Shown in pieces: positions 1 to 16,139 of a DNA stretch of 18,502 nt (position 1 is the first letter of the stretch; every line of letters starts with the position of its first letter). The stretch spans positions 1 through 18,502 of the forward strand of contig JBBQPO010000109.1 of NCBI GenBank assembly GCA_038217285.1, written 5' to 3'. Below the pieces are notes generated by a model, which saw only the letters and a program-made list of their open reading frames with translations, was not told where the DNA came from and did no database searches. A program made the translations under genes and the position numbers. The DNA comes from Chthonomonadales bacterium (GTDB lineage: Bacteria > Armatimonadota > Chthonomonadetes > Chthonomonadales > Chthonomonadaceae).

Positions 1-310
1 GGCTGTCGAGGAGGGTATGGCCCCCTTGCTGGAAGTCTTCCTGGACTTTGACCTCGCAGGGTCTTCCCTGGAGCGCGCCGAGTTGGTTGGCGAGTTTGAG
101 GCGATAGGATCGGAACTCGACGCTGACGCACGAGAGGAAGACCCGCATGCTCGGATTTGACTCGTTATCCGGCTCTCCCGCAGGCTGTGACTCGAGCGAG
201 TCAGGTCCGGAGGGTTGCAGTGTGACGGGCAGAGCCGGCTCCGGCAACTGCGGATCGGGAGCAACGGGATCGCCTGTCTGTTTGGAGAAGAGCCGCTTGA
301 ACCAGTTCAT
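1..310 (-). CDS. DUF4062 (TIR-like) domain protein, 5' part only; runs off the left edge of the window
   Basis: Not in the ORF track; translated by hand from ATG at 310 (AGGAG RBS 5 nt upstream): MNWFKRLFSKQTGDPVAPDPQLPEP...NPSMRVFLSCVSVEFRSYRLKLANQLGALQGRPCEVKVQEDFQQGGHTLLDS. The frame is open to the edge. RVFLSCVSxEFxxxRxxL...QEDF matches the start of DUF4062/TIR-like domains, after a Pro-rich linker. Confidence 0.75.
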   Translation of the reverse strand, partial: MNWFKRLFSKQTGDPVAPDPQLPEPALPVTLQPSGPDSLESQPAGEPDNESNPSMRVFLSCVSVEFRSYRLKLANQLGALQGRPCEVKVQEDFQQGGHTLLDS

Positions 311-486
311 GTCTGCTCCTAGCCTTTCAAAGATGACCGAGGGTCACGGCCTAGCCATTCGCGAGTTTCCACCGTTTAGCTGCCGATGGACAACAGCGTC
401 TTTTGCGGGAACGGAAGTCCCAACTCCCCTACAGGCGCCGTGTGAAATCGTCCCTTGAGAAGTGAGCCGGGTCCGATGAGGCAATT

Positions 487-1554
487 CTAGTTCTTGATCT
501 CCTCGGGAGCCTCAAGCCCGCGCAAGAGTTGTTCCAAATCCTTTGCAAGCTGAGTGAACTTGCCATAATAGAGGCAGCGGTGCGTACTGAGGTCGAAATG
601 GACAAGTTCTCCCTTGCGGGCAAGCAGTATAACCGGTATGCCGCGGCCCCAGGCATAACCAACTTCGAGGTAAACGTTTGGGCGACCCTCCGTGAGATCA
701 GCGATTACGATGAAGGCTGTTTCGATGCCATGTCTGACGCGATGCAGGATGTCGCCTGTGAAATGGGTCTTGTCGACCCTTTCGCAGATGAAACCGCAGT
801 TGCGCACGGCGGGATAGATTCCAAATTCATAGACGTTTTCGAACTCTTCCGAGTAGGGCATGGCCACAAACACACTCTTCTTGCGCGCTACCGCATCTAC
901 CCGTTGTATCTCTTCCATAGACGCTGCGTCCGTCTGTCGTATCCCATGATCTTCCTTCTCCAGTTCCAGTTGGCCGGGATCTGTTGCAGCATGCGTAATC
1001 CCGACATGTTCAGAGTTTGGTATTTCTGCGGGGAGATCCATTTGGGTAAGTACTGACTCCAACGTTCGCTTTGCCCGCTCGTCATTGGTGAGGAATTCTA
1101 TCTTTCCGATATCGGTTGATGACGCTGCAGACAAACCTCTTTGGAATCCACATATCAAGCGTTGGAGGGATTCGCCTTCGTCCAATCCATATCCGCCTCC
1201 GTGGACCGTCGTCGTCAGCACCTTCAGTGGCATCGAGAGACTGGAGAGGATTTCGATGAACCTTTGCGCGAAGCCCTGTATCTCGTCGTAGTCAAATGCA
1301 GTCAAGTCCGGCGTACCGAGGAACATGACCCGGGCGGGAGCGAGCCTGCCTTGCGTCTCAATGATCTTGAAGTCTCCAGGCTTGAGCCTGAGATCCCTCT
1401 CATCGCATAGGCCGGATGAAACAAGCATAGTCATGACTGCCCTGTCGGCACCGTAGAACGATTGCGCATGTTTCAAAAGGAGCAAATCGGACGGCTCCAA
1501 GAGAACATCTCCGAGTCGAACCACATATTCCGGCGTGTTCATAGCTCTATTCAT
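487..1554 (-). CDS. Macro-like N-terminal domain fused to a nucleoside 2-deoxyribosyltransferase/TIR-like C-terminal domain
   Basis: 355 aa ORF; an alternative ATG at 1542 lies 12 nt after GGAGG. The C-terminal VFVAMPY...RVD...IADLT..RPNVYLEVGYAWG..PVILL...FDL is the typical NDT/TIR-like signature with its conserved Glu. The N-terminal VVRLGDVL..SDLLLLKHAQ..GADRAV and TTVHGGGYGLD resemble Macro-fold motifs (less certain). Confidence 0.7.
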   Translation of the reverse strand: MNRAMNTPEYVVRLGDVLLEPSDLLLLKHAQSFYGADRAVMTMLVSSGLCDERDLRLKPGDFKIIETQGRLAPARVMFLGTPDLTAFDYDEIQGFAQRFIEILSSLSMPLKVLTTTVHGGGYGLDEGESLQRLICGFQRGLSAASSTDIGKIEFLTNDERAKRTLESVLTQMDLPAEIPNSEHVGITHAATDPGQLELEKEDHGIRQTDAASMEEIQRVDAVARKKSVFVAMPYSEEFENVYEFGIYPAVRNCGFICERVDKTHFTGDILHRVRHGIETAFIVIADLTEGRPNVYLEVGYAWGRGIPVILLARKGELVHFDLSTHRCLYYGKFTQLAKDLEQLLRGLEAPEEIKN

Positions 1555-1617
1555 CCTCCATGGTAACTTTGCAGCATGCGTCGGACAATCGCTTCCACGT
1601 GTACCCGGTCACGAATC

Positions 1618-1911
1618 CTATCGGGTTTCGGGAGGTACGATCCGGTACCCGAGTTTAAGAACCGCCTTTACCGTGCCGAGCGCAGTGATGCGGTCATACT
1701 CCTTTTCACTCTCCGGCAACGCGTCATAGGGTACGAGGCCGGGATGGAGTTTGTGGGTATCGTCCCGCTGCGCGCCATAACGCCATCCCTCGGCGGTACG
1801 CTGCACGGCCCAGAGGTCGTGTATATGTTCCGCGAGGCGTTCGGTCAAGGGCAATAGTTCTTGGGGAATCTCTACGCCATCGGTGAAGATCGGACTGGGT
1901 TCGTAGCTCAT
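1618..1911 (-). CDS. Standalone RyR (ryanodine receptor repeat) domain protein, 97 aa
   Basis: MSYEPSPIFT..VEIP.EL..L.ERLAEHIHDLWA..R..EGWRYG..RDD..KLHP.LVPYD.LPESEKEYDR......GYRI follows the RyR repeat consensus. Start moved to ATG 1911 (AAGGA RBS). Confidence 0.9.
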   Translation of the reverse strand: MSYEPSPIFTDGVEIPQELLPLTERLAEHIHDLWAVQRTAEGWRYGAQRDDTHKLHPGLVPYDALPESEKEYDRITALGTVKAVLKLGYRIVPPETR

Positions 1912-2004
1912 GAGTAATCCTTCTATTTCTCGGCGCGTCCCGTCAGCGGCCGAGATACGGTACGCGTACGCTGTTGGACGTAAGCGCTGCATACCCGGCC
2001 TTTC

Positions 2005-2034
2005 AGTATAGCAAAATCTGACGGGGAATCGGAA
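2005..2034 (-). promoter_or_regulatory. Putative sigma70 extended -10 promoter for the RyR/Macro-NDT/DUF4062 module
   Basis: Minus strand reads TTCCGA-N18-TATACT with TG at the extended position (TGCTATACT), inside the 136-nt JAB-RyR intergenic gap. Confidence 0.5.
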
Positions 2035-2047
2035 ACTCCAGAGAGGA

Positions 2048-2779
2048 TCAGACCAGGGACCATTGTGAACAGGGGTGTCCCTCGGCTCCGAAGAAGAAGC
2101 CGACCGCGTGAGAGATAGGATCGATCACCAGGGCGATCTGCCAGTCATGGAAGAAGACGCCGCGCTGCGTCTCCAAATCGGTGGAGGAGAGAAACACCCC
2201 CATACCAGGGTGGGAATGGTAGGAACCGAGCAAGGTCCATGTCGTCGGCAGAGACTGCAACTGAGGCGTGAGAGCCTGCCACGTCGCAGCGGTATAGGCA
2301 AAGGTAACGGCAGTGCCCTCGCCATCGTGTGCCGGCAGAGCCTCTTCCACGACCACACAGTAGAGATCGAGATCTGCATCGTAGATGGATTCGCCGATCA
2401 GCAGACCGCCGAGTTCTATCCGGGTGTCACTGCGCAGGTGCCTCTGTAACTTTTCGAAGGCAGCCCGACGCACGAGACAGCAAGAGGAGCCGCGCCGCAG
2501 ATCCGGCATGCGCTCCGGCGACAGCGCGCTCAGAAATTCAGAGGCGCGCGCGCGTTGGGGCCGATAGACGTCCTCCTGATCGACCCACTCGATCTCATCG
2601 AGTTCCGGAACGACAGGCGGAGTTTCCAGGCCAGCCTTGCTCTCCCGTTCCAGTCGCTTCCTCAGCACGGACGCAACAAACGCCTCGTCCTCCTGCCGCG
2701 CCAGCAGATCCGGGTCTGCCGCATTCGGTATCGAGGGCACAGCCCGGTCTTCCGTTTTTCTCTTCCAGAAAGGACGCAT
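2048..2779 (-). CDS. JAB/MPN (JAMM) metallo-isopeptidase, deubiquitinase-like, with N-terminal extension
   Basis: ELGGLLIG ... YHSHPGMGVFLSSTD (E...H-x-H-x7-S-x2-D) ... ALVIDP is a complete JAMM motif. The ATG directly abuts the E2 stop codon. Confidence 0.93.
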   Translation of the reverse strand: MRPFWKRKTEDRAVPSIPNAADPDLLARQEDEAFVASVLRKRLERESKAGLETPPVVPELDEIEWVDQEDVYRPQRARASEFLSALSPERMPDLRRGSSCCLVRRAAFEKLQRHLRSDTRIELGGLLIGESIYDADLDLYCVVVEEALPAHDGEGTAVTFAYTAATWQALTPQLQSLPTTWTLLGSYHSHPGMGVFLSSTDLETQRGVFFHDWQIALVIDPISHAVGFFFGAEGHPCSQWSLV

Positions 2780-3382
2780 CTACAGATCCTTCCAGACGAC
2801 GGTGCTGTCCTCCTCCGCCTCATTCCGGGGCGAGAGAAAAGGCAGGTCGTCCAGGAGAGGCGTGAAGGAAGGAAGGTTGGCATCAGGCGCTTTCCGGACG
2901 GGCGGATCGTTGACAAAGGTGCAGTGGTCGGTCGGGAAAAGGAGGCGGTTCTTTTTCGCCCACTCGGCCGCCGCCTCGTTGGCAGGATCCTTGATCGCAA
3001 GATATTCACGCTCGAACTGCAGGAGCGCGCCCAGCCGAAGCGCGAACCGGTCCAAAAATTCGCTCGTCTGCCAGTTTCCCATGCAGACGACCAGGTTCTT
3101 ATAGACGTGAGGATGGTACAAGGGGGTCAGCAGTTGAACCACCGGCGGTGCGATCGGTGCGGGATATTTTGATGGCAGGCGGATAGAGACGCGGTGCATT
3201 TCTCGGTAGACCGGTCGCCCCTTCTCCAGTCGCTCGATGCCCCGACACCGATAGACCAGAACGTACTGATCGATCGGCCGCCCTTTGACCGACTCCATCA
3301 TGAGCGTTCCACCGCTTCCGTGGGCAAGCGCCCGCAGGTGGAGGTAATCTGACTGAAGACGCAGGTCTCGCGCGTTCGCCAT
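2780..3382 (-). CDS. Ubiquitin-conjugating E2 (UBC-fold) enzyme
   Basis: UBC hallmarks: N-terminal RL..D helix, IRLPSKYP...PPVV...TPLYHPHVYKNLVVC (HPx-x7-Cys), W, and DPANEAAAEW. Start is ATG 3382 (GGGGAG RBS) or GTG 3391 overlapping the Ubl stop. Confidence 0.9.
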   Translation of the reverse strand: MANARDLRLQSDYLHLRALAHGSGGTLMMESVKGRPIDQYVLVYRCRGIERLEKGRPVYREMHRVSIRLPSKYPAPIAPPVVQLLTPLYHPHVYKNLVVCMGNWQTSEFLDRFALRLGALLQFEREYLAIKDPANEAAAEWAKKNRLLFPTDHCTFVNDPPVRKAPDANLPSFTPLLDDLPFLSPRNEAEEDSTVVWKDL

Positions 3383-3387
3383 ACCGA

Positions 3388-3651
3388 TCACTCCCCGCCG
3401 TGCGTTGCCAGCGGTTGAATCATCAGGGTGTCGTGGTCGCGCACTCTCTCTTCGGTCAGCATCTCAAAAGGAAGCAACTGCCGGTTCAAAGAGAGGTTCG
3501 TGACGACGTAGTTCGAGCCGAAGAGCATCTTCCAGCGTTTGGTCGAAGCGCGTATCAGGTCCTGCGCGGTCATCGTGCGTGGAAGCACGATCTCCGCTTT
3601 GCGTGTTTTGTCCGCAGTCTGCAAATAGAAAACAACTCGTTCTCCGCTCAT
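3388..3651 (-). CDS. Ubiquitin-like (beta-grasp) modifier protein, 87 aa, C-terminus HGG-E
   Basis: Size and pattern fit Ub/YukD-like folds (beta-beta-helix ... L...EMLTEERVRDHDTLMIQP...GG). It has a di-glycine one residue before the stop and lies between E1 and E2 with 3- and 5-nt gaps. Confidence 0.85.
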   Translation of the reverse strand: MSGERVVFYLQTADKTRKAEIVLPRTMTAQDLIRASTKRWKMLFGSNYVVTNLSLNRQLLPFEMLTEERVRDHDTLMIQPLATHGGE

Positions 3652-3654
3652 GTT

Positions 3655-4818
3655 TCAGCCTTTCCAGCCCTCGCCAAAGAGATCGCCTCCGGACAGTTGG
3701 AGGAAACGCCTGGTCCCCTCCCCTTGAATGCTCACGACGGCGCCGTTCGGAAGCCCCATCCGTGCCAGTGAAACGTCCGCATAGGGTCCTGCGGCGTCCA
3801 GCCAGTTCACGGCCTCCGGTTGGCGACTGCGCGTTTTGCAATCGGGACAGAACGTCCACTCCATACCGCACCGTTCCAACGGCTTCAAAACCGTCTCTAC
3901 CGCGCCACACTCCACGCACCGCATCTGCGTCAGAAGATCGAAGCCCAGTTCGACCGCCCCGCCCGACTCGCCCGCAAGGTCCAGCAAAAGACGGGGCGTT
4001 GCTATCTCTTTTGACTGCTCGATACCCTCGATAGGTTCCCAGGTATCATGGGCCAGGCACTCACTATTTTCCGGCAGGTCGTAAACCCCGAAATGATAGG
4101 GCTTCAGAGTCAGATAGAGCTTCTGAGAGAAGGCCAGCCCCTCTTTTTGCAGTGAGCCGGCGGCATGCAGCAGCAGCAACGCCTCATTGACGAGATACCC
4201 TGCAACGATAGAGGCGACCACGGCGGTCGTCGGCATCTTCTGATCGGCCTCCTCGGCGCGCAGGCCGCCGCAGGCGAATCGCCGGTTGCGCTCCTCCCAC
4301 ATCGCCGCCGACATGGCGCACTCGTAGCAGGCTCCCGATCTGCCGTCAAACAGACTGACCTCCGCAATCGTGGCTTCGATACCGCCGTTCAGCCAGGGAA
4401 CACCCGCCCGTCGGCAAAGGCGATTCAGGGCCAGACGGGCCTGCACACTGTCGAGACAGCCGATGACGACATCCATGTCCCGATAGACGCCAAGACCGAC
4501 ATCGAATTCGAGATCACCGACGAGAGAGCGAACCCGGATGTCAGGATTGATTTCGGCAGCGCGCTCTGCCGCCACCTCTGCCTTCGCCCGCCCGTGGTCT
4601 GCGGCGCGAAACAACACGCTGCGGGTTAAGTTCGATAGCTCGACCGTATCGCTGTCCACAATGACGAGATGTCCGACACCGATGAGCGCCAGATTCTTGA
4701 TGACCTCGTTGCCGATGGCCCCCGCGCCGACCACCATGACACGCGCGTGGTGCAGACGCTCCTGGTCCCACCAGTCGATCAGCCGATGCCGCGTATAACG
4801 ATCCTCTTCGGAATTCAA
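3655..4818 (-). CDS. Ubiquitin-activating E1-like enzyme (ThiF/MoeB/E1 adenylation domain, catalytic Cys, C-terminal Zn-ribbon/ubiquitin-fold-like extension)
   Basis: Motifs DRYTRH, VVGAGAIG, D.DTVELSNLTR, KAE, CLDS..AR, CYEC, downstream FAC (candidate thioester Cys), CLAH, then CVEC...CPDC. Start reassigned to TTG 4818, which overlaps the upstream TGA (TTGA) after a GA-rich RBS; 387 aa. Confidence 0.92.
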   Translation of the reverse strand: MNSEEDRYTRHRLIDWWDQERLHHARVMVVGAGAIGNEVIKNLALIGVGHLVIVDSDTVELSNLTRSVLFRAADHGRAKAEVAAERAAEINPDIRVRSLVGDLEFDVGLGVYRDMDVVIGCLDSVQARLALNRLCRRAGVPWLNGGIEATIAEVSLFDGRSGACYECAMSAAMWEERNRRFACGGLRAEEADQKMPTTAVVASIVAGYLVNEALLLLHAAGSLQKEGLAFSQKLYLTLKPYHFGVYDLPENSECLAHDTWEPIEGIEQSKEIATPRLLLDLAGESGGAVELGFDLLTQMRCVECGAVETVLKPLERCGMEWTFCPDCKTRSRQPEAVNWLDAAGPYADVSLARMGLPNGAVVSIQGEGTRRFLQLSGGDLFGEGWKG

Positions 4819-5159
4819 AGGTGCGTCTCTCTCTCCCGGAAGGGCACCACGGAGCCAGCCTTCCGGCAGTGACAGCAGCGCCCTTTGTCCGTATCCCGAA
4901 GAAAGGCCCAACCTTCGGCGCTATAGGCCGTATTGCAGTTACGGCACAGATAGAGGAAACTGCCTGTTTGCAGCGACTGGCGGGTGACAGGGCAGACCAG
5001 GGCGGTGTCTATGCCGAGCGCGGCAGCCTGGGGCGGACTCAACGAACGAAATTCGACGTTGGGATCGTCCGGCAGTTCGGCAGCATCGCGCGACGATTGC
5101 AGTGTGTTATCACGCAGGAGCCCCATTCTCATCAGCAGTGCTGTCAGTCGTTCCCGCAT
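4815..5159 (-). CDS. Small Cys-rich protein with a degenerate RING-like finger (candidate E3)
   Basis: 114 aa from ATG 5159 (AAGGAGG RBS). Contains CPVT-x12-CRNC-x3-YSAEGW-x10-CCHC. Translationally coupled to E1. Confidence 0.7.
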   Translation of the reverse strand: MRERLTALLMRMGLLRDNTLQSSRDAAELPDDPNVEFRSLSPPQAAALGIDTALVCPVTRQSLQTGSFLYLCRNCNTAYSAEGWAFLRDTDKGRCCHCRKAGSVVPFRERETHL

Positions 5160-5187
5160 CGTCACCACCCTCCTTGCACCCTCTCCC

Positions 5188-5526
5188 CTACAGTGCGTCA
5201 TCTCCTCGCTCCTCGGTACGCACACGGACGGCGTCTTCCATTGGCAGCACGAAGATTTTACCGTCGCCCTGTTCGCCTGTATGCGCATGGCGTTCTATCG
5301 TAGTGACGATCTCATCGATGTCTTCGTCACGCGCCACGATCTCGATCTTGATCTTCATAGGCAGTTCGATCGCGTACTCCACGCCCCGAAAACTCTCCCG
5401 ATGACCACGCTGCCGCCCACTGCCCCGCACATCCGACACCGAGAGCCCCGTCACCCCGATCTCCCCCAGCGCAATCTTGACCTCATCCAACTTGAGCGGC
5501 CGAATAATCGCCTCAATCTTCTTCAT
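5188..5526 (-). CDS. glnB: P-II family nitrogen regulatory protein (GlnB/GlnK)
   Basis: Canonical 112 aa: MKKIEAIIRP, GRQ39, RGVEY51, K58, TGEQGDGKIF, RVRT. glnB versus glnK cannot be resolved; no amtB is adjacent. Confidence 0.95.
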   Translation of the reverse strand: MKKIEAIIRPLKLDEVKIALGEIGVTGLSVSDVRGSGRQRGHRESFRGVEYAIELPMKIKIEIVARDEDIDEIVTTIERHAHTGEQGDGKIFVLPMEDAVRVRTEERGDDAL

Positions 5527-5575
5527 CTCCTAGCCCTTTCCTGCCTTCCTGTTCGTATCCCTTTCTTTTTTCCTG

Positions 5576-6526
5576 TTATTGTTCGCGCAGCACCCGCACG
5601 GCGACATCCATTGCGCGGGCAAAAGGGCCTCGGTAGATCCCGCGTATCGGTGGAACGTCCCCATAATCCCGCCCGAAATGGACCTTCACGTAGTTCTGAT
5701 TGGTCAGCAGATTGTTCGTCGGGTCGAAGCCATGCCATTTGCCGTCCGACAGCAGACATTCGACCCAGGCGTGCATGGCGTCTCCGCCGGTGGGACTGGT
5801 GCGAAGTGAGTAGGACGGCTTCTCGTCCACGCTATCCTCCGGTAGTTCCGTGACAGGATAGTCTTCCGCGCGTTCGCCGGTGTAGAGATAGCCGCTGACG
5901 TAGCGCGCAGGAATGTGCTGGCGACGACAGACGGCGAGCATGAGATGGGCGAAGTCCTGACAGACGCCACTTTTCTGTTCAAGCACCTGCTGAATCGAAG
6001 AGTTGACGTTGGTCGCTCCCGGCGCGTAGGCGATCACATGGTAGAGCAGCCGCGTCAGAGCGATCAGAAAGGAGGCGGAACCGACGTCTGCCTGCTTGTG
6101 CGCCACGACCGCGATGCGCTCCGTCTCCGGATGGAGGAGCACCCGTTCGGTCGGAGCCAGATACTCGCCATAGCGCTCCCGAACTGTCGGCTGCCGATAG
6201 AACGCGCTGTCGTCTTCGGTCAGGTTGAGTCCCGCGAACGGGTCGTGGCGATGCGTGACGACCAGCGACTCGGCCATAATCGCCAGTTCGTGGTGCGCAG
6301 AGCGGACGCCGAAGTGGTGGACGCGACCGGTGGGCAGATCGTACTCGAAAACCGGTGTGGACGGCAGGACCGTCAGGCGGAAGTCGAGGCACGTCTGATC
6401 GCCGTCGCTCAAGGGCATCAGTCGAACTTCGTTGTGACTCTCCGTCGCGGGAGTCGTGTAGCTGTATCGGGTCGTATGGTAGAGGCGCAGGCGCACGGTG
6501 GCAGTTTCCCTGTTCCGGAGAGACAC
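5576..6526 (-). CDS. Transglutaminase-like protein (bacterial transglutaminase N-terminal domain plus catalytic core)
   Basis: N-domain H.TRYSY...NEVRL.P; catalytic triad in GVCQDFAH, HAWVE and FDPTN; also ARYVSGYL and GRDYGDV.P. The start may be GTG 6496. Confidence 0.93.
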   Translation of the reverse strand: MSLRNRETATVRLRLYHTTRYSYTTPATESHNEVRLMPLSDGDQTCLDFRLTVLPSTPVFEYDLPTGRVHHFGVRSAHHELAIMAESLVVTHRHDPFAGLNLTEDDSAFYRQPTVRERYGEYLAPTERVLLHPETERIAVVAHKQADVGSASFLIALTRLLYHVIAYAPGATNVNSSIQQVLEQKSGVCQDFAHLMLAVCRRQHIPARYVSGYLYTGERAEDYPVTELPEDSVDEKPSYSLRTSPTGGDAMHAWVECLLSDGKWHGFDPTNNLLTNQNYVKVHFGRDYGDVPPIRGIYRGPFARAMDVAVRVLREQ

Positions 6527-6532
6527 GATCTC

Positions 6533-7564
6533 TCAGTAGGAGAGATAGGTGCGTGTGATCGCTCGGCCGACATCGTCGCAGCGTCCCTGTACGCTGTCCA
6601 GAAACTGATGCAGCCCGCTGCGGATGATCTCGTCGGAGCGTATATAGGTCAGGTCGGCGCGCAGTCTGCCGAGGAGACGTTCCGGATCGGTCGTCGGTTC
6701 GTCGCGCATATTGCCGCTAATGCGCTTCTGGCAGCCCTCGACGCGCCCGATCCCATGCCGCACCGAAGCCGGGAAGGTGGGGTTGAGCACCAGGAAATCG
6801 ACGATGCTGGCTGGCCGGATCCCGTCGTGGTGCGTTTTACGATACATTTCGAAGGCGCTGACCGATTTCAGCACCGCAATCCAGCCGTGCATATCCAGCG
6901 GCCCGCCGACTCCGTAAGGGTTGGGCTGTCGTTCCGCCGACGGCGCATGGTCGGTTTCTGGAATGTCGGTGACGTAGACCGGCAGCAGGTCGTGGTACTT
7001 CACATCCAGTAGACGCGCTGTCTGAATGGCGCGCTCCAAAAAGCGCCCGGTGTCGAGCCAGTCACGGGGTTCGCTCATCAACATCGTGCGATTGAGGATG
7101 CCCTGAAACAGGTGGGAGGCGTTCTTCACGGCTTGAAAGAACTCGTGTGGAGAGCCGGCCAGCACGCGGTCCACGTTCCACTCCCGCAGCTGCAAGTAAA
7201 AGACGTTCAGGCTCTCCCACATCTCCGAGGCGATCTGCTCTCGAATCGAACGGGCATTTTCCCGGGCTCCGGTCCAGACCCGCAAAATCGAACCCGGATT
7301 CTCCATATCGAAAACGAAAAAATGGATTACGTCCCGGTCGTTCTCCGTGGCATAGCGCGCATGATAGTCTTTCGTGCTGCCGGAGATCGCGAGCAGCGAC
7401 GCCCAGCGCATCGGCGTAAACGCGTCCTCTCGATCGAGATCGGCGGCGGGAAGCGTCGTCTCCAGCGCGGCGTGATAGTGAACATCGACCATGCGGGCGG
7501 TCGCTTCGGCGCGTTCGACGTAGCGGCCGATCCAGTAACAGGAGTCGGCATCTCGACTGAGCAT
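6533..7564 (-). CDS. Alpha-E domain protein (DUF403)
   Basis: MLSR.A...YWIGRYVERAE.TAR, ARENARSIRE.I..EMWE and GRFLERA..TARLLDVKY: the repeated ER motifs of alpha-E proteins. The ATG overlaps the upstream TAA. Confidence 0.93.
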   Translation of the reverse strand: MLSRDADSCYWIGRYVERAEATARMVDVHYHAALETTLPAADLDREDAFTPMRWASLLAISGSTKDYHARYATENDRDVIHFFVFDMENPGSILRVWTGARENARSIREQIASEMWESLNVFYLQLREWNVDRVLAGSPHEFFQAVKNASHLFQGILNRTMLMSEPRDWLDTGRFLERAIQTARLLDVKYHDLLPVYVTDIPETDHAPSAERQPNPYGVGGPLDMHGWIAVLKSVSAFEMYRKTHHDGIRPASIVDFLVLNPTFPASVRHGIGRVEGCQKRISGNMRDEPTTDPERLLGRLRADLTYIRSDEIIRSGLHQFLDSVQGRCDDVGRAITRTYLSY

Positions 7565-9144
7565 TACGAGCCTCCTTCCGGTTCGGTCGTCGGAGCCGGT
7601 TTGCCGAAGCTCTGCGTCATGCCGCCCAGCGACTGCGCCATTCCCGTTCCGGTCATCATCTGACTCATGCCATTCCTCTGCTGGCTAAGGCTCGCATTGT
7701 CGTGCGCGAGCACCCAGGTGTCTTTGCTGCCGCCCCCCTGCGAGGAGTTGACGACATAAGAGCCTTTGCGCAACGCGACCCGTGTCAGGGCGCCGGGAAT
7801 GATGGTGATCTCCTTCTGTCCATACAGAATATAGGGTCGCAGATCGATATGTCGCCCCTCCATGTTGGTTTCGTCGATAAAAGAGGGCGCTTGCGACAGG
7901 GAGATGAGCGGTTGGGCAATGTAGTTGCGCGGATTCGCCTTTATCTTCTCGGCGAACTCGGCGCGTTCGGCCTGGCTCGCCTGCGGCCCCATCAGCATCC
8001 CGTAGCCGCCCGACTCGTTGGCGGCTTTGACCACCAGTTTGTCGAGGTTGGCCAGAATATACTGCCTCTGCGTCGGCTCCGAGGCGAGAAAAGTTTCGAC
8101 ATTATCGAGGATCGGCTTCTCGCCCAGATAGTACTCGATGATGCGCGGCACGTAGGCGTAGACGACCTTGTCGTCCGCAACGCCCGTGCCGATGGAGTTC
8201 GCGAGGGCGACGTTGCCACTGCGGTAGGCATTGACCAGTCCCGCCGCGCCGAGCGCCGAGTCGCCGCGGAACACCAGGGGGTCGAGAAAGTCGTCGTCCA
8301 CCCGGCGATAGATCACATCGACCCGTTCCGGTCCTTTCGTGGTCTTCATGTAGACGATATTGTTGTCTACAAACAGGTCGCGCCCCTGCACCAGTTCGAT
8401 GCCGAGCTGTTGGGCGAGAAAGGCGTGTTCGAAATAGGCGCTATTGTAGACGCCGGGGGTGAGCAGCACCACATTGGGAGAGTCCCGGCGGCCCTCCGGG
8501 GCGAGCTCGCGCAGATTGTTCAACAGTTGCGTCGTATAGTGATCGACGGGTCGCACGGGCAGGTCACGGAACATCTGCGGCAGCACGCGCGTCAGGATGA
8601 TCCGGTTTTCCAGCACATAGGAGACTCCGGACGGCGTACGCAGGTTGTCTTCGAGGACTTTGTACGTTCCGTGCTGGTCACGGATCAGGTCGCTGCCGCA
8701 GATATGCACATAGATACCGCCGGGCGGATCGGCGCCCAGGAACTCGCGCCGGAAGTAGGCGGCGTTCACAATGAGGTCACGCGGAATGACACGGTCCGCC
8801 AGGATCTTCTGGTCGTGGTAGACATCGTGAATGAACAGGTTCAGGGCGGTCAGACGCTGCTTGAGGCCGCGCTCGATCAGTTCCCATTCGTCGGCCGGAA
8901 TGATCCTCGGAATCAGGTCGAAGGGGAAGGGCTTTTCCACCCCCTGCTCGCCGCCATAGACCGCGAACGTGATGCCCTGATTAATGAGAGTCAGCTCGGC
9001 CAACTGGCATCGACGGCGGAAGTCTTCGAGAGACAGGCCGGTGAGACGCTGGAACAGTTTCCAGTAGTGGGGGCGTGGTTGGCCGTCCGGCTGAAACATT
9101 TCATCGTAGAAGCCATTGGTCTGATAGTTGTCGAATAGTGGCAT
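7564..9144 (-). CDS. Circularly permuted type 2 ATP-grasp peptide ligase (DUF404/DUF407 type)
   Basis: YDEM, GITF.VY, PFDLIPR, LEDNLRTPSGVSY, NSAYFEH, RVDVIYRR, GVADDK, SGGYGM, DLRP, VVNSSQGGGSKDTWV. Start reassigned to ATG 9144 behind AGGAGG; 526 aa. Confidence 0.95.
   Translation of the reverse strand: MPLFDNYQTNGFYDEMFQPDGQPRPHYWKLFQRLTGLSLEDFRRRCQLAELTLINQGITFAVYGGEQGVEKPFPFDLIPRIIPADEWELIERGLKQRLTALNLFIHDVYHDQKILADRVIPRDLIVNAAYFRREFLGADPPGGIYVHICGSDLIRDQHGTYKVLEDNLRTPSGVSYVLENRIILTRVLPQMFRDLPVRPVDHYTTQLLNNLRELAPEGRRDSPNVVLLTPGVYNSAYFEHAFLAQQLGIELVQGRDLFVDNNIVYMKTTKGPERVDVIYRRVDDDFLDPLVFRGDSALGAAGLVNAYRSGNVALANSIGTGVADDKVVYAYVPRIIEYYLGEKPILDNVETFLASEPTQRQYILANLDKLVVKAANESGGYGMLMGPQASQAERAEFAEKIKANPRNYIAQPLISLSQAPSFIDETNMEGRHIDLRPYILYGQKEITIIPGALTRVALRKGSYVVNSSQGGGSKDTWVLAHDNASLSQQRNGMSQMMTGTGMAQSLGGMTQSFGKPAPTTEPEGGS
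7612..7671 (-). repeat. Three G-M-x-Q coding repeats in the ATP-grasp C-terminal tail
   Basis: GGC ATG AGT CAG, GGA ATG GCG CAG and GGC ATG ACG CAG within ...NGMSQMMTGTGMAQSLGGMTQSFG... Confidence 0.7.
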
Positions 9145-9326
9145 CGAAAGAGACGCACCTCCTGCGGGTTTCGACTCCGCCTTGGAGCCGTGCAGACTTT
9201 TCACCGAGGGGCACCATCGCCTGGACCGGGCGCGAAGGCCGGTAAACCGCTTCGCAAAAGGGGAAAAACAACGATGCACCGACAGCGACTGCAAAATGCA
9301 GCAGGGATTACCGCTATCGTTCGCCT

Positions 9327-9356
9327 ATTATAACCCGTCTCGCACTATAAAGTAAA
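9327..9356 (-). promoter_or_regulatory. Putative sigma70 promoter for the long minus-strand operon
   Basis: Minus strand reads TTTACT-N18-TATAAT in the AT-rich divergent intergenic region, about 180 nt upstream of the ATP-grasp start. Confidence 0.5.
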
Positions 9357-9469
9357 GATGCCGTCAATGTAAAATAGACTCGACAGAGCATCGCAATCTC
9401 CCCTCGCTTTCCTGTAAAGCCGAGACGGGAGAGAATAGAAACGCCGACCATAGGTCGCAGGAGAGCCGA

Positions 9470-10549
9470 ATGAGTGAGCTGAATTTCGATTTGTTGAAAC
9501 GAATCTGCGAGACACCTGGCATTCCAAGCCGGGAAGAGGCCATCCGCAAGCTGGTCATTGCGGAGCTGAGACCGCTGTGCGACACGCTGGAGGTCGATGT
9601 GATGGGCAACGTGATCGCGTTCAAGAAGGGCGCGAGTGATGGCCCGCGCGTCATGATCGCGGCACACCTCGACGAGATCGGTTTCATGGTGAAGCATATC
9701 GACGATCGGGGATTTATACGGCTTCTGCCGGTCGGCGGCTGGGACCCACGCGCCATGGTGGCGCAGCGTGTGCTGGTACACGGCTTCGCGGGCCAGACGC
9801 TCCGCGGCACCCTGATGCCGGGGATCAAACCGACCCATCTTTTGACGACGGAGGAGGCGAACAAATCCCCGAAGATCGAGGAGTTTTTCGTCGATCTCGG
9901 ACTCTCCGGCGAAAAGGTCAAGTCGCTCGTCGAGTTGGGCGACATGGTCACGATGGACCGAACGGCGGAGCGGATAGGCGATATGGTCGTGAGCAAGACC
10001 CTCGATGACCGCCTTAGCGTCTTCATTCTGATCGAAACGCTCCGCAAACTCCAGAATACGCCGACGAAAGCCCATATCCTCGCCGTGGCCACTACGCAGG
10101 AAGAGGTCGGCCTGCGCGGCGCGACGACGGCAGCCTACGCCCTACAGCCCGACATCGGCATTGCGCTCGATGTGACGCTGGCGGTCGATCTCCCCGGCGT
10201 TCCCGAGCAGGATCAGGTGACGCGGCTTGGAAACGGCACGGCGATCAAGATCGTCGACTCCTCCCTGCTCTGTCATCCCAAACTCGTCCGCCACTTCCGG
10301 GACGTCGCCGAGGCGAAGGGCATCAAATATCAGTTGGAGATTCTTCCACGGGGCGGCACCGACGCGGGCGGAATCCAGCGCAGCCGCGGCGGCGTTCCCT
10401 CCTTCACGCTCTCCATTCCGACGCGTTACATCCACACCGTCAACGAGATGGCCCATGTCGACGACATCCAGGCCTCCATCGATCTGCTGGCCGCCTACCT
10501 GCCCGAAGCCCACACCCGCCCCTACGGCTACGCCGAAGAGGTCGAGTAG
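9470..10549 (+). CDS. M42 family metallo-aminopeptidase (TET/FrvX-like)
   Basis: Metal and catalytic motifs AAHLDEIG, KTLDDR, QEEVGLRGA, IALDVT, GGTDAG, PTRYIHT; AGGAG RBS. Confidence 0.95.
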   Translation: MSELNFDLLKRICETPGIPSREEAIRKLVIAELRPLCDTLEVDVMGNVIAFKKGASDGPRVMIAAHLDEIGFMVKHIDDRGFIRLLPVGGWDPRAMVAQRVLVHGFAGQTLRGTLMPGIKPTHLLTTEEANKSPKIEEFFVDLGLSGEKVKSLVELGDMVTMDRTAERIGDMVVSKTLDDRLSVFILIETLRKLQNTPTKAHILAVATTQEEVGLRGATTAAYALQPDIGIALDVTLAVDLPGVPEQDQVTRLGNGTAIKIVDSSLLCHPKLVRHFRDVAEAKGIKYQLEILPRGGTDAGGIQRSRGGVPSFTLSIPTRYIHTVNEMAHVDDIQASIDLLAAYLPEAHTRPYGYAEEVE

Positions 10550-10628
10550 CGAATCTTTCCCGCCGCTCCGGTTTCTCCCCAGGAACCAGGGCGCGCTGGG
10601 AGACCCCATTTTGAAAGGAGAGGCATTC

Positions 10629-11363
10629 ATGGAACGATCATGGCGAATTATGCTGGGATTTTATACCGTCTGGCTGGGAACCTTTTTTTTGACCGCGTCT
10701 TACACGGCATGGGCAGGTCCCGGCGGCCTGATCAAGGACGCTGTCATGACCCCGATAGGCCGCATTCTCTTCCTTATCCTGGCGGTTCTGCTCTCCCCAT
10801 TCATCGTCTACTATATGATCAAACGCGCGATACAGATCCGGCACACACGGGAGGATCTGGTCCGACTGGCCGCTCTCTATCCGCAGTATCGATGGCTGGA
10901 CGTAAAGGATCGTGCGACAGCGGCATTCCAGTGGGTCTGGTCCGCGTGGGGCAAACAGAAGATGGAGTCGGCCTCCGCCTTCACAACCTCCTGGTATATG
11001 CAGAACCAGCAGATGCTGCTGGACGACTGGTCGGACCGAGGACTGGAAAACGTCTGCCAACTCAAGTCTATCAAGCGAATCGAGCCTCTCTTCGTCCAGC
11101 ACAACGAGGCAGGTGACGGCCAGGGTTCGCGGTTGACTCTGGTCATTACGGCCAGCGTGGTGGACTACCTGCGGGACAAATCGACCGGGAAGATTGTCGA
11201 GGGAGACAAGAAGATCGACGACTTACAGACTGTCTGGACGTTCGTCTGGCAGGAGAACGGTTGGCTCCTGAATCTCATTGAGCCGAGTACGACGGAGTGG
11301 TCCTATCTGACGATGCCAAACGAACTGCCCGCCTCGCTCACGCCACAATCGTCACGGGCCTGA
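10629..11363 (+). CDS. Membrane-anchored Tim44-like domain protein
   Basis: Start reassigned to ATG 10629 (AAAGGAG RBS); 244 aa. A signal-like segment (AWA/GPGG) and a hydrophobic helix precede a domain with AF..V..AW, DY.....GKIVEG and WTF....GWLL..I, typical of Tim44-like domains. Confidence 0.75.
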   Translation: MERSWRIMLGFYTVWLGTFFLTASYTAWAGPGGLIKDAVMTPIGRILFLILAVLLSPFIVYYMIKRAIQIRHTREDLVRLAALYPQYRWLDVKDRATAAFQWVWSAWGKQKMESASAFTTSWYMQNQQMLLDDWSDRGLENVCQLKSIKRIEPLFVQHNEAGDGQGSRLTLVITASVVDYLRDKSTGKIVEGDKKIDDLQTVWTFVWQENGWLLNLIEPSTTEWSYLTMPNELPASLTPQSSRA

Positions 11364-11505
11364 ACCTCAGTGGTAACTATTCACCCAGGCCTTTCGGTGA
11401 AACTCTTTGAGGTATAGCAGTGTGCCACCAGGGCGTATGCGCGAACTTGCCAACCTCGACACACCGTGAGAATATTGCGGCGACCGTTGCGACGAACCAG
11501 ACGAC

Positions 11506-11544
11506 CGACGCTATTCGGCCCCGTGAAAAAACCGAATAGCATCG
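11506..11544. terminator. Inverted repeat between convergent transcription units (possible terminator)
   Basis: GCTATTCGG-N13-CCGAATAGC perfect 9-bp stem, extendable by 3 bp past one mismatch. No strong U tract. Confidence 0.4.
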
Positions 11545-11587
11545 TCAATCTATGAGGAGAGCGAACGAAGTCAATGTCGCGCCAGTG

Positions 11588-11810
11588 TTACTCGTTCGGA
11601 GTGGCGATGTAGCCGTGCGTAATACCGCTGGCATCCGTATACGTATCCATGTGCATGCCCATCTTTGCCATCGCGTACCCCGGCAATATCGCCATCATTG
11701 TTGATGCCGAGAATGCCGGTGAAGTAGATGGCTCCTGGTGCGTCAACCGACCTGAAGTGATAACGGGCTTGCCTTTGAGCGATCGCGTGGCAGGGTAGGA
11801 ACGGTGACAC
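11588..11810 (-). pseudogene. Internally deleted remnant of an extracellular beta-repeat (HAF-repeat-like) protein gene
   Basis: One frame gives YHFRSVDAPGAIYFTGILGINNDGDIAG..DGKDGHAHGYV (first repeat). A shifted frame continues YTDASGITHGYIATPNE* (typical last repeat). The two are joined out of frame at about 11641. Confidence 0.65.
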
Positions 11811-11824
11811 GGCGCAAACGTTTC

Positions 11825-11840
11825 TGTGATTTACATCACG
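11825..11840. promoter_or_regulatory. CRP/FNR-family-like binding site
   Basis: TGTGA-TTTACA-TCACG, a 9/10 match to TGTGA-N6-TCACA, in an AT-rich intergenic patch. Confidence 0.5.
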
Positions 11841-11909
11841 CTTGTACTTTTTTGGGTAGCGCGGCGTTTTTTCGGAGCCTCCGCCTCGACGACGGTTTCG
11901 GCGACAGCC

Positions 11910-12488
11910 TCAGTTGCCTCCGCTTCCGGCGCGATTTTCAACTGTAGAGGGTGTCTCGGTAAGTGACTCCATCGTTTTGGCCTCATAGAAACGGCCGGAC
12001 TTCTTAATCGACGTCAATATCTCGGAGTATTCGCGCTTATAATTTGCCCCGATCCAGACTGGATTGGCCACGAGGCCATCACAGACATACACGCCCCGAA
12101 AGCGAACGACCCCTGTTCGCAGCACGACTCCTGTTCCTCCGACGATGTCACGCAGACGCTCCGTGAGGCCAAGAACGGCATAAGCCTCCTTACCGTCCGG
12201 CTCAATAAAAATTGAGTATTTCGTTGTGTCGCGCAGGAAGATCCATTGCCGCACCTTGAGGGATCGAACGGCGTCAAGCACATCTTCCGGCAGGGGGCGA
12301 CCTTGTCCTTCAAGACTTAAGGCCGCGAGATCGAGGAGTAATGGATTGGCGACGACGGCGTCGCGCGCGGCGCTCAGCATCTCGAGAAGTTCCATTTTGC
12401 GCGCACCATCCGAAAGGATATGCACTTCGGCAAGCAGACTCGTATAGCTATTTATGAACTGTTTCGCGTCTTTTGGATTAATGACCAT
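11910..12488 (-). CDS. Hypothetical protein, 192 aa
   Basis: Start reassigned to ATG 12488 because the upstream ORF extension overlaps the SDR. Globular composition (WIFLRDTTKYSIFI, YAVLGLT, FRGVYVCDG, IGANYK). No function recognised. Confidence 0.7.
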   Translation of the reverse strand: MVINPKDAKQFINSYTSLLAEVHILSDGARKMELLEMLSAARDAVVANPLLLDLAALSLEGQGRPLPEDVLDAVRSLKVRQWIFLRDTTKYSIFIEPDGKEAYAVLGLTERLRDIVGGTGVVLRTGVVRFRGVYVCDGLVANPVWIGANYKREYSEILTSIKKSGRFYEAKTMESLTETPSTVENRAGSGGN

Positions 12489-12520
12489 GTGCGTACTTTC
12501 CAACGTCTGTGAGCAGGCTC

Positions 12521-13297
12521 CTAGAGTGAGCGAATGGTGAGGCCGCCGTCGGCGATCAGGGTTTGGCCGGTGATGTAGGAGGCGGCGGGCAGGCAGAGGA
12601 AGGCGACGAGAGCGCCGATCTCTTCCGGACGGCCCGGCCGCTTCAGAGGCACACGGGAATCGAGGTTGCGCCGAAAGTCGGGGTTGTTCATCAGCGGCTC
12701 GGTCAGCGGCGTCTCGATGAAACCGGGCGCGACGGTGTTGACGAGAATGCCGTCCGGTGCCCATTCCAGCGCGAGGCCCCGCGTGATCTGCGCCATCGCC
12801 GCCTTGGTGGCGGCGTAAGGAATCCCGGTCGGAATCGCCCGCTCGCCCGCAATGGATCCAATGAACACGACACGGCCTTGCCCGCTCTGTTTCAGAGAGG
12901 GATGGCAGGCGCGAACGAGCGCGAACGCGGAGAAGAGATTCGTCTGGAAGATATGGGCGATCTCCGCCTCTGTGTAGTCGAGCGCTTGCTTCCGAATGTT
13001 CGTGCCGACGTTGCTGACCAGGAGATCGAGACCGCCGAGATCCTCGTTGATCGCTGCAAGCATTGCCGCCTGCCCCGCGTCAGTCGCGACATCCGCCGAC
13101 AGGGTGCGGATCGGCAGCCCTGCTGCGCGGAACTCCTGCGCGCTCGCCTCCAGATCGGCGGCGTTACGCGCGACCGACAGCACCTCTGCTCCGAAATGGA
13201 GCAGTTCCCGCACTGTCGCGAGCCCGATCCCTTTCGAACCCCCTGTCACCAGCGCCTTGCGCCCCTTTAGCTGCCAGCGCGCGCCTACATTTTCCAA
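12521..13297 (-). CDS. SDR family oxidoreductase, tropinone reductase-like
   Basis: RWQLKGRKALVTGGSKGIG, NVGTNIRK, YAATK, VAPGFIETP, FLCLPAASYITGQ; TTG start after AAGGAG. Confidence 0.93.
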   Translation of the reverse strand: MENVGARWQLKGRKALVTGGSKGIGLATVRELLHFGAEVLSVARNAADLEASAQEFRAAGLPIRTLSADVATDAGQAAMLAAINEDLGGLDLLVSNVGTNIRKQALDYTEAEIAHIFQTNLFSAFALVRACHPSLKQSGQGRVVFIGSIAGERAIPTGIPYAATKAAMAQITRGLALEWAPDGILVNTVAPGFIETPLTEPLMNNPDFRRNLDSRVPLKRPGRPEEIGALVAFLCLPAASYITGQTLIADGGLTIRSL

Positions 13298-13335
13298 GCG
13301 ACTTTCTCCTTACCGTCGATAGTGACGTACTGTTC

Positions 13336-14901
13336 CTATTTCGCGCCGATGCAGACCACTTCCTTGAGGCTCCGGTGAAACAGTTTGCCGTTGGCGTAGC
13401 TGATAGAGTTCAGGCTCCACGTTGAGTCCGCCGGCCCCAGGTCGTTGACGGCCAGCAGCGCCTTGGCGTCGAGCACTTTGGCGCGGGCGTCGATGACATA
13501 GGTGAGGCCGAGCATCGTCGTGATGTAGATCTTGCCGTCCACACAGGTCGGGCTGCCGAGGTAACACCAGTACCAGCCGTCCCGTTTCGAGCGAGGATCC
13601 CCGGCGGCGTCGATTCCACGGGAGTTCATGGTAGAGGAAGGCTGCGACTGTCCCCAGATAAAGCGGTCGGACTGACCGGGAGCGCGGACGACGGAGACGG
13701 GTAGCTCAAGATACTCGACTTTGTCGGTGGCGATGTTCACTCGGCCGATACAGTGGGCTGGGCCGAGATGCTGAGAGGCGTCGGTGAAACAGAGGAAGTA
13801 GTGGTAACCCTCGGTGACGATGTTGCAGAACTGCGACGGGAACACGACCGTCGGCGGGTTGGCCAGCTTCAGGTTGACATCGGGCAGGAACTGGTACTGA
13901 CCGCTCTTCGGGTCGAACCAGCGGTAGTCCACTTTATCGACCAACGACTGCGTTTTGACGAGTTTGCCGGTTTTTATGTCGATGACCTGATGATCCGACG
14001 TCTCTTGCGCGATCCAGTAGGCATACTGATTGTCCCAGTGCTGGGTGTAGAGCGCTTTACCGACGGCATCGAACCTCCAGAGAGACTTCCCTTCCTGCCC
14101 TGGGGCGAGGCTGGTCAGAGTCAGACCTGTAGGCCGTTCCGGGACGTCGTGATACCCACCCCGGCCCTGCAGGATCGCCGCTCTTCCACCGGGGAGGTGT
14201 CCGAATACGGGCGTATTGTAGTGCGTCAGCGAGTCCTCGGAGACCCATAGGGTTTTGCCGGTGGCCTTGTCGAGACCACGCAGGTAGTTCCAGGGATCTT
14301 TCGCCTCACGTTTCGGATCGCCGACGTCTCGCGGCTCCATGTTCACAACGGTGTTTCCGAGGAGCATCGGCTCAAACTGTTTGTTGAAGGGCCGGCCGTT
14401 CGTGGGCTGCCAGCGGCGCATCCAGACCGGCTTGCCGGTGAAATCGTAGCAGCCGAGGGAGCCGCTGGTATTGTAGAACCAGACGTGTTTGCCATCAGTG
14501 ACCGGTGAGGCAGACGTCGAATCACTGAACCCGTAGGCGTAGACGCTGTCCTCGGTTCCGGGCAGATCGACGGTCCAGAGAATTTTGCCCGTGTGGCTGT
14601 TGAGGCAGTACCCGACGACCTCGTGCCCTTCCTTTTTATCGGATTCGGATGCCAACGGCTTCATCGTCGTGAGGAAGAGACGATCCCCCCACACGGCGAT
14701 GCCGCTCTGCCCCTCTTCCGGCAGAGTGGTACGCCAGACAATGTTTTCGTGGCGCGTGACGCTCCAATGGACAGGCACATTGTGCCCGGCCGCCGTCCAG
14801 TTGCCATTAGGTCCGGCAGGCTGGGGCCAGTTATCGGCAGAAGCCAGCGTCACAAGCGCGGCCAGCGCCACCAGAACACTCATCATCAAGCGGGTTTTCA
14901 A
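13336..14901 (-). CDS. Secreted PQQ-binding-like beta-propeller repeat protein
   Basis: Signal peptide (..LASA/DNWPQ), NIVWRT.LP..GQS, TGKILW, SPVTDG, TGKTLW, SPT..DGKIY, N.L, GKLFHRS...VVCIG. Likely TTG start at 14901 (GGAG/GAGG RBS); the ORF extends to 14931. Confidence 0.85.
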   Translation of the reverse strand: MKTRLMMSVLVALAALVTLASADNWPQPAGPNGNWTAAGHNVPVHWSVTRHENIVWRTTLPEEGQSGIAVWGDRLFLTTMKPLASESDKKEGHEVVGYCLNSHTGKILWTVDLPGTEDSVYAYGFSDSTSASPVTDGKHVWFYNTSGSLGCYDFTGKPVWMRRWQPTNGRPFNKQFEPMLLGNTVVNMEPRDVGDPKREAKDPWNYLRGLDKATGKTLWVSEDSLTHYNTPVFGHLPGGRAAILQGRGGYHDVPERPTGLTLTSLAPGQEGKSLWRFDAVGKALYTQHWDNQYAYWIAQETSDHQVIDIKTGKLVKTQSLVDKVDYRWFDPKSGQYQFLPDVNLKLANPPTVVFPSQFCNIVTEGYHYFLCFTDASQHLGPAHCIGRVNIATDKVEYLELPVSVVRAPGQSDRFIWGQSQPSSTMNSRGIDAAGDPRSKRDGWYWCYLGSPTCVDGKIYITTMLGLTYVIDARAKVLDAKALLAVNDLGPADSTWSLNSISYANGKLFHRSLKEVVCIGAK

Positions 14902-14980
14902 CGGCCTCGTCTCCCTAACTTCATAGATCAAGCTTGGCGTCGGTTTTCCACAGCGCCCACTGGAATTCCTGCGTCGCGAC

Positions 14981-15010
14981 TTGACAATGACAGATACTGA
15001 ACGATATAAT
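14981..15010 (+). promoter_or_regulatory. Consensus sigma70 promoter for lacI-family/GH unit
   Basis: TTGACA-N18-TATAAT with both hexamers perfect. Confidence 0.85.
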
Positions 15011-15018
15011 ACCGTCAG

Positions 15019-15044: not shown

Positions 15045-15087
15045 CTATGATTTTTTAACGCCCATCCAGCGAGAGATTGGAGAGCGG

Positions 15088-16077: not shown

Positions 16078-16139
16078 ACGAACGCTGTATTCTCTCCCGA
16101 TTCCGGGAGACACCACGATGGAGAGATCAGGAGCATGAT

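Follow-up and report, generated by a model that had tools for sequence, protein, structure and literature searches.

RING-type ubiquitin ligases (E3 enzymes) encoded in prokaryotic operons together with a ubiquitin-activating enzyme (E1), a ubiquitin-conjugating enzyme (E2), a JAB metalloprotease and a ubiquitin-like modifier (Ubl) are a known concept, predicted in 2011, and the available part of a later paper describes a prokaryotic RING-type E3 component beside JAB, E1 and Ubl-E2 genes (PMC7159879, citing Burroughs 2011). Reconstitution of an archaeal system of this kind followed in 2017: the Caldiarchaeum subterraneum small RING finger protein (srfp), a RING-H2 E3, had to be present for ubiquitylation of targets in vitro, and its activity needs I30, the hydrophobic residue after zinc ligand 1, W58, the Trp after ligand 6, and R69, the basic linchpin after ligand 8 (PMC5654768). 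Here we describe a gene for a degenerate Prok-RING-like protein, a candidate E3, in an 18,502-nucleotide stretch of DNA (the window) from a Chthonomonadales bacterium (GenBank assembly GCA_038217285.1, contig JBBQPO010000109.1, positions 1 to 18,502 of the forward strand). The gene is the minus-strand open reading frame (ORF) at 4815 to 5159 and encodes 114 aa. We interpret its product, referred to below as the zinc protein, as a small RING-type adaptor of a lineage related to the Pfam family Prok-RING_1 (PF14446, "Prokaryotic RING finger family 1") that has lost the first RING zinc site and kept the second, a reading to which we give a probability of roughly 0.6. The motif, the degree to which it is conserved, the homology to a Prok-RING_1 member and the make-up of the operon are shown here; from the sequence we infer how the protein folds, that it holds a single zinc, that it binds E2 and that it acts as an E3 on some target, and an E3 function is plausible.

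We took the ATG at 5159 as the start codon, since its Met aligns with the first residue of 20 of the 21 close homologues, the exception, P0021, being shorter (84 aa). A longer reading of 157 aa, starting at 5288, is not supported by these homologue starts. The motif that marks the protein lies between residues 56 and 98, and the minus-strand translation of 4866 to 4994, CPVTRQSLQTGSFLYLCRNCNTAYSAEGWAFLRDTDKGRCCHC, matches exactly the pattern on which the original prediction was built, C-P-V-T-x12-C-x2-C-x4-S-x2-G-W-x10-C-C-H-C. The RING-like domain common to all relatives spans residues 53 to 106 (4842 to 5003; profile matches at profile positions ~50 to 108). Within it, the retained zinc site (RING ligands 3, 4, 7 and 8; 4866 to 4946) would consist of C72 (4944-4946), C75 (4935-4937), C95 (4875-4877) and C98 (4866-4868), and the positions of the lost site (ligands 1, 2, 5 and 6; 4911 to 4994) are occupied by C56 (4992-4994), T59 (4983-4985), S80 (4920-4922) and G83 (4911-4913). 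The residues at the E2-contact positions of RING E3s (4863 to 4988) are V58 (4986-4988), W84 (4908-4910), C96 (4872-4874) and R99 (4863-4865).

The original prediction had mapped this pattern onto a RING finger with ligands 3, 4, 7 and 8 kept, ligands 2, 5 and 6 lost and the Trp after ligand 6 kept. That assignment is right, because the window spacing, C-x2-T-x12-C-x2-C-x4-S-x2-G-x11-C-x2-C, lines up with the RING motif of srfp, C-X2-C-X11-C-X2-C-X4-H-X2-C-X10-C-X2-C (as given in the available part of PMC3082918), and because a profile alignment pairs the same positions. The two spacings (x2, x12, x2, x4, x2, x11, x2 in the window; x2, x11, x2, x4, x2, x10, x2 in srfp) are near-identical, their inner part being equal, although the comparison was made through the published motif only. 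In the profile alignment, the family profile (alignment A2) was matched by hhalign over the whole domain, 63 columns, to P0178 (97.3%; E = 1.8e-11); the four cysteines coincide, and T59 pairs with Asp, S80 with His, G83 with Cys and W84 with Trp. P0178, which was found through the distant relative P0087 (hhalign 96.6% against the family profile), lies above the Pfam cut-off for Prok-RING_1 (32.8 versus 29.1 bits, model positions 4 to 36 of 54). To judge from their residues (C, D, H, C), it is plausible that the first zinc site is still present in P0087 and P0178.

The window protein shares with Prok-RING_1 this whole-domain alignment to a member, a knuckle-hairpin-[YH/YS]-x2-[C/G]-W-...-CxxC layout, and a gene neighborhood of E1, E2, JAB and Ubl. 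It differs in that the protein and 63 relatives fall below the family cut-off, in that Thr, Ser and Gly stand at ligands 2, 5 and 6, so that one zinc site is gone, and in that its family has C96 between ligands 7 and 8 as well as an N-terminal I-x-F-x-x-L-x-P motif. Thus, the eight ligands of a binuclear RING are not all present: the Cys/His-type ligands of the window protein are ligands 3, 4, 7 and 8 and, in addition, ligand 1 (C56). The ligand set of Prok-RING_1 is of the C4HC3 type, according to the accessible text of PMC11354881, and this set is not seen in the window family, where 74 of 94 domains have Ser for the His (position 80) and Gly for the Cys (position 83).

The likeness to srfp extends to genome context and to the residues that matter for its activity. 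Both are small, stand-alone proteins whose genes lie beside that for E1 in a Ubl/E1/E2/JAB cluster, as described for srfp in the available literature, and the window protein has equivalents (V58, W84 and R99) of the three srfp residues named in the available part of that work. It is because these residues stand at the places of I30, W58 and R69 that we infer a RING-type adaptor, and by analogy they would play an srfp-like role. In contrast, srfp has all eight ligands and in vitro E3 activity, whereas the window protein, a predicted E3, retains C56 and the four ligands of the second site only.

Conservation of the motif goes far beyond chance, because it is shared by the 21 homologues of ~114 aa (58-94% identity) returned by a word-indexed search and by the matches of a profile search of 1.84 billion representatives (73 at E ≤ 1e-3, 51 at E ≤ 1e-10), three of which (P0073, P0074 and P0077) are repeat proteins that lack the Cys motif and were discarded as spurious. 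The portion shared among relatives is the C-terminal ~55 residues. Conservation was counted over 94 domain instances, that is, 101 hmmsearch rows minus four rows covering the N-terminal motif only and three rows of P0084. The four cysteines occur in every aligned domain: C72 and C75 in 94/94 each, C95 in 93/94 (one gap) and C98 in 92/94 (two gaps). The columns of the other site read C/T/S/G in 74 of the domains, D-x-H-S/T in others and C/D/H/C in two (P0087 and P0178), and the losses are confined to that one site, as had been proposed. Taken singly, C56 is found in 76 domains (D in 16), T59 in 82, S80 in 76 (H in 15) and G83 in 74 (S in 13, T in 4, C in 2). W84 is kept in 83/94 and position 58 is V, I, L or F in all 94. 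C96 is present in 75/94 and, on these alignments, is an extra cysteine specific to the zinc-protein family; it and C56 are mostly absent from the D-x-H-S relatives. The C-C-H-C ending pointed out initially is sound as regards its cysteines, but its His is incidental, position 97 being H in 14/94, G in 27 and N in 16. Because this His is not conserved, the true ligand pair is C95-x2-C98.

A tree of the 94 domains, built with the four site-1 columns left out, needs a single change to the C-T-S-G state. The branch setting off the C/T/S/G group has weak support (72 in the SH-aLRT, the Shimodaira-Hasegawa-like approximate likelihood ratio test), and the window protein lies within a 22-member clade with a support of 99. 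The domains are short and the tree is weakly resolved, with SH-aLRT values below 80 on 58 of 91 inner branches.

In SP-RING domains and in Rtf2, only one zinc site remains, that of ligands 3, 4, 7 and 8. The U-box, an E2 adaptor with a RING fold, starts with a C-P-[IV]-[ST]-like turn, carries a conserved aromatic residue in its helix and binds no zinc. The window family follows the one-zinc principle of SP-RING and Rtf2, and 9 of the 63 relatives have Rtf2 RING-finger matches below threshold (best 25.4 versus 27.4 bits), but no relative passes the cut-off for zf-MIZ (PF02891), zf-Nse (PF11789) or Rtf2. With zf-MIZ, zf-Nse and the U-box, no match spanning the domain was found at E ≤ 0.1 among the 63 relatives, and none at all for the window protein. 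The single zf-MIZ match (P0057, E = 0.025) lies outside the domain and the single zf-Nse match (P0083, E = 0.091) covers 20 residues; both are far below cut-off. The U-box family (PF04564) also differs in lacking what the window family keeps, four invariant cysteines. The prediction of a one-zinc RING variant is therefore upheld by the Prok-RING_1 homology and the ligand pattern, and the kinship with SP-RING and the U-box that came with it is not, since no profile of those families matches over the domain and the kin identified through P0178 is Prok-RING_1. The resemblance to SP-RING and Rtf2 looks like convergent loss rather than membership, and the U-box may serve as an analogy for metal-free stabilization of a former zinc site.

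The zinc protein gene is the first of a tight minus-strand array that continues with genes for E1, Ubl, E2 and JAB, with overlaps or gaps of no more than 4 nt throughout. The E1-like activating enzyme (387 aa; 3655 to 4818, minus strand; Pfam ThiF, 1.3e-52) is eukaryote-like, its best solved relatives being UBA7 (8.5e-34) and UBA1 (4e-28), versus 1.5e-21 for MoeB/ThiF. Translation of E1 begins at a TTG, with a 4-nt overlap between this start and the zinc protein stop codon, and the two genes are translationally coupled. Between E1 and E2 lies the gene for an 87-aa protein ending in HGGE (3388 to 3651, minus strand), which we take to be the Ubl; its sole family signal in Pfam is a weak match to ThiS (E = 0.1), and a sequence search returned no solved relative. 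The UBC-type E2 (2780 to 3391, minus strand) exceeds the Pfam cut-off for UQ_con (8.8e-08), and its profile matches UBE2A/B and UBE2N at ~2e-8; translation probably starts at the ATG at 3382, which would bring the protein to the 200 aa of its homologues. Of these, 83 were found, and some from a Chthonomonadaceae bacterium are annotated "ubiquitin-conjugating enzyme E2". In this E2 family HPH replaces the HPN of eukaryotic ubiquitin-conjugating enzymes, and C103 is invariant. We also observed that this family carries a C-terminal tail of ~50 residues ending in an invariant Trp (W200). The last gene of the array (2048 to 2779, minus strand) encodes a JAB/MPN metalloprotease (Prok-JAB, 2e-08; JAB, 3e-05), a putative Ubl-processing enzyme and deconjugase, in whose translation an H-S-H-x7-S-x2-D motif is visible. 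Enzymes of eukaryote-like type, as E1 and E2 are here, work with RINGs, a point in favor of a RING reading of the zinc protein.

A scan of species genomes returned four related loci (L001 to L004). One of them (L004, Aurantiacibacter) was discarded as a chance match: it covers 57 aa (E = 3e-4), and no ORF corresponds to it. In two of the three real loci, those in metagenome-assembled genomes (MAGs) of a Chthonomonadaceae (L001) and a Chthonomonadales bacterium (L003), the order zinc protein, E1, Ubl, E2, JAB is kept, as is that of the nine genes from an ATP-grasp gene to JAB. The Ubl of these loci is 83-89% identical to that of the window. The Ubl sequences of these close relatives end differently, with HGGE (window, 3388 to 3396), HGIG (L001, ~9770) and HGGG (L003, ~9708), so the need for trimming by JAB may differ among loci. 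Among the zinc-protein homologues on contigs of at least 8 kb, five of seven have an E2 homologue on a contig of equal length, which suggests that the two lie on one contig. No relatives of the zinc protein were found in plasmid or phage collections.

Several results weigh against a RING-type adaptor and bear in different ways on what else the protein might be; they are given here beside those that favor it. At the level of sequence profiles, the window protein matched no Pfam family at E ≤ 1 and no PADLOC, NCBIfam or PHROGs model, and among the 63 relatives none reached a RING-family cut-off in Pfam; that standard RING profiles could miss the protein had been foreseen. On the side of a RING, Prok-RING_1 matches below threshold were seen in 15 of these relatives (best 26.5 bits against the cut-off of 29.1). 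The ESM Atlas model of P0018, a relative 66% identical to the window protein, is of low confidence (pTM 0.36, pLDDT 0.52). Its neighbors comprise ten rows, three of them unnamed bacterial clusters, and the seven that carry a Pfam family are, in favor of a RING, all RING-type, with TM scores of 0.39 to 0.58 that serve as leads only: zf-RING_2, Rtf2 (TM 0.46), SWIM plus zf-RING_2 in a viral cluster, zf-NOSIP/RING_UBOX, zf-C3HC4 and RINGv. A viral zf-RING_2 neighbor aligned over residues 51 to 110 (TM 0.58; the family occurs on 19% of the cluster members) and an archaeal one over residues 50 to 105 (TM 0.53). By language-model features, the nearest named clusters, again as leads toward a RING, were Prok-RING_1 (0.86) and archaeal zf-RING_2 (0.84-0.85). 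When solved structures were searched by sequence, RING matches were weak (NOSIP, E = 0.0072; the NOT4 RING, E = 0.054, query residues 51 to 102 on chain residues 7 to 58), and C2H2 arrays, PRDM9 and Aart, came out on top with whole-sequence E values of 1e-7 to 6.6e-6.

These last matches, along with scattered zinc-ribbon matches below threshold in Pfam among the relatives, are what one would cite if the protein were a zinc ribbon of a general four-Cys type or bound nucleic acids through a C2H2-like finger, for example as a small transcriptional regulator of the operon. We consider such a protein highly improbable. The C2H2 matches span ~20 to 25 residues, covering the linker and first knuckle, with individual E values of at least 15 and no His pair, and the whole-sequence values are partial matches summed over repeats; the spacing C-x2-4-C-x12-H-x3-5-H does not occur in the window protein, and a C2H2 finger was accordingly rejected. 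The zinc-ribbon matches are likewise partial and all below cut-off. It is a Prok-RING_1 member that aligns over the full domain, and every named structural neighbor is of RING type.

Other difficulties concern the catalytic part of the proposal. The linchpin position, residue 99, is R or K in only 48 of the 94 domains, and related operons can do without a protein of this kind. In the mobilizable plasmid NC_019754.1 of Crinalium epipsammum, a cluster at 4239 to 7716 (L005) has the order E1-Ubl-Ubl-E2-MPN, with an annotated E2 and two Ubl paralogues, one ending in AEGGY and the other lacking GG, and it encodes no RING-like protein; an E3 is therefore not obligatory for such operons. Similarly, the Bil (BilABCD) systems are described, in the available part of the report, with E1, E2, Ubl and a deubiquitinating enzyme (DUB) only (10.1101/2023.09.26.559546). 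What the Bil and Crinalium clusters, as far as the available descriptions go, have in common with the window is a single operon with E1, one or two Ubls, a UBC-like E2 and JAB/MPN; the window differs in adding a RING-like protein, whose gene is upstream of the E1 gene and overlaps it. Together with the loss of one zinc site, and with the ubiquitin-binding U-box-like domain that the accessible text on IFT172 reports, these points could be read to mean that the RING-derived fold serves as a noncatalytic binder of Ubl or E2, such as a receptor, scaffold or regulator, and not as an E3; degenerate domains of the RING/U-box kind can retain binding after ligase activity is gone. We regard this as unlikely, given that the three E2-contact positions are conserved: position 58 is hydrophobic in every domain, W84 is kept at the frequency given above, and R99 is invariant in the 22-sequence alignment of the window's clade (A1). 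Moreover, SP-RINGs with one zinc and U-boxes with none are active ligases.

A further difficulty arises from the third real locus (L002), also in a Chthonomonadales MAG. There the homologue of the zinc protein (119 aa, 30-40% identical) is retained with E1 only, and in the segment from 8016 to 10131 the two genes are followed by one for Leu/Phe-tRNA protein transferase (Pfam, 7.8e-65), an enzyme of the N-degron pathway. Within 8 kb there is no homologue of Ubl, E2 or JAB. This arrangement would be expected if the zinc protein served E1 rather than E2, as its cofactor, by assisting assembly or by regulating how the Ubl is activated, and the 4-nt overlap with the E1 start codon, found both in the window and in L001, points the same way. 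However, the srfp E3 gene also adjoins that for E1 in the Caldiarchaeum cluster, according to the available text (PMC3082918), so adjacency to E1 is expected of a RING E3 in such operons, and the homology of the zinc protein, as seen in the hhalign match to P0178, is to RING fingers. A role confined to E1 is in our judgment rather improbable.

If the zinc protein is a RING-type adaptor, the system could work as follows. JAB would trim the Ubl to a GG end and could later reverse conjugation. E1 would adenylate the Ubl and pass it to Cys103 of E2. In the zinc protein, C72/C75 and C95/C98 would hold one structural zinc, and no metal would be needed to hold the former site-1 positions (C56, T59, S80 and G83) together, as is the case for SP-RING, Rtf2-type and U-box domains. 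The RING-like domain would bind the charged E2 (E2~Ubl) through V58, W84 and the loop from C95 to C98, which make up one face, R99 acting as linchpin, and would promote discharge of the Ubl onto a target lysine. The target is likely to be recruited by the N-terminal helix and the I-x-F-x-x-L-x-P motif, or in longer relatives by a SWIM-like module. In the window protein the motif reads V-E-F-R-S-L-S-P (5034 to 5057, minus strand; alignment A2); F37 is nearly invariant in that alignment, F being found in 59 of the 66 rows in which the column is filled, and the motif may dock a partner or substrate. It is very doubtful, though conceivable, that C56 and C96 on the E2-facing side act as a switch responsive to redox state or metal, or as a relay of thioesters, making the protein a regulated or catalytic E3 of a complete, eukaryote-like E1-E2-E3-DUB cascade in free-living Armatimonadota.

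About 20 relatives are long forms (200 to 283 aa) in which the N-terminal helix and motif are followed by a SWIM-like insert and then by the RING-like domain (P0036, P0040, P0042, P0043, P0045, P0046, P0051, P0052, P0054, P0056, P0057, P0059, P0060, P0063-P0065, P0068, P0069 and P0071). The insert has the form C-x-C...C-x-H, and Pfam SWIM matches below threshold were found in 5 of the 63 relatives. Some distant relatives (P0082, P0085, P0088 and P0089) have two or three RING-like domains in tandem; P0082 has three copies and C-terminal TPR repeats.

Directly upstream of the zinc protein gene, on the same strand and with gaps of 0 to 49 nt, are four genes (5188 to 9294) assigned through Pfam: a circularly permuted ATP-grasp protein (CP_ATPgrasp; 7564 to 9294), an Alpha-E protein (6533 to 7564), a transglutaminase-like protein (5576 to 6526) and PII (5188 to 5526). 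On the minus strand near the array, promoter-like sites were found only upstream of 9294; the promoter and terminator scans returned five sites where 2.8 were expected and are thus near chance. The order of these four genes is shared with L001 and L003 but not with L002. They may form a long operon in which the Ubl system is joined to PII and a cluster of peptide-ligase type, or may reflect shared ancestry only.

Downstream of the JAB gene, all on the minus strand, lie genes for an RyR-domain protein (1618 to 1992; Pfam RyR, 1.9e-30) and a 355-aa protein with a TIR-like C terminus (487 to 1554; PADLOC TIR effector model, 1.8e-13; Nuc_deoxyrib_tr, 6e-4) and a partial ORF (2 to 310). Both proteins match PHROGs families of unknown function. 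The G+C content from 2 to 1992 is 0.53 to 0.565, versus ~0.60 in the operon, and this segment, which may be an inserted defense-type segment, is absent from L001 and L003; there, a gene for a YegS-like lipid kinase lies downstream of JAB, directly in L001 and after two unassigned ORFs in L003. No tRNA, Rfam family or meaningful repeat was found in the window; near its end there is an intergenic 16-nt tandem repeat of 2.3 copies (18053 to 18089).

The literature search returned no paper on the C/T/S/G subfamily or on a Chthonomonas ubiquitin system, and Burroughs 2011 may cover the subfamily. A survey based on Pfam thresholds described, in its available part, no complete ubiquitin toolkit in bacteria (PMC4327156). 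Such surveys undercount, because no curated profile reaches an E3 candidate that has lost half of its zinc ligands. The C/T/S/G subfamily is well defined and could become a search profile in its own right. With it, bacteria would offer a case in which one RING zinc site has been lost, as seen in eukaryotic SP-RING, Rtf2 and U-box domains. If the zinc protein is active, free-living Chthonomonadales would possess a complete cascade of E1, E2, E3 and deconjugase, made of eukaryote-like components.

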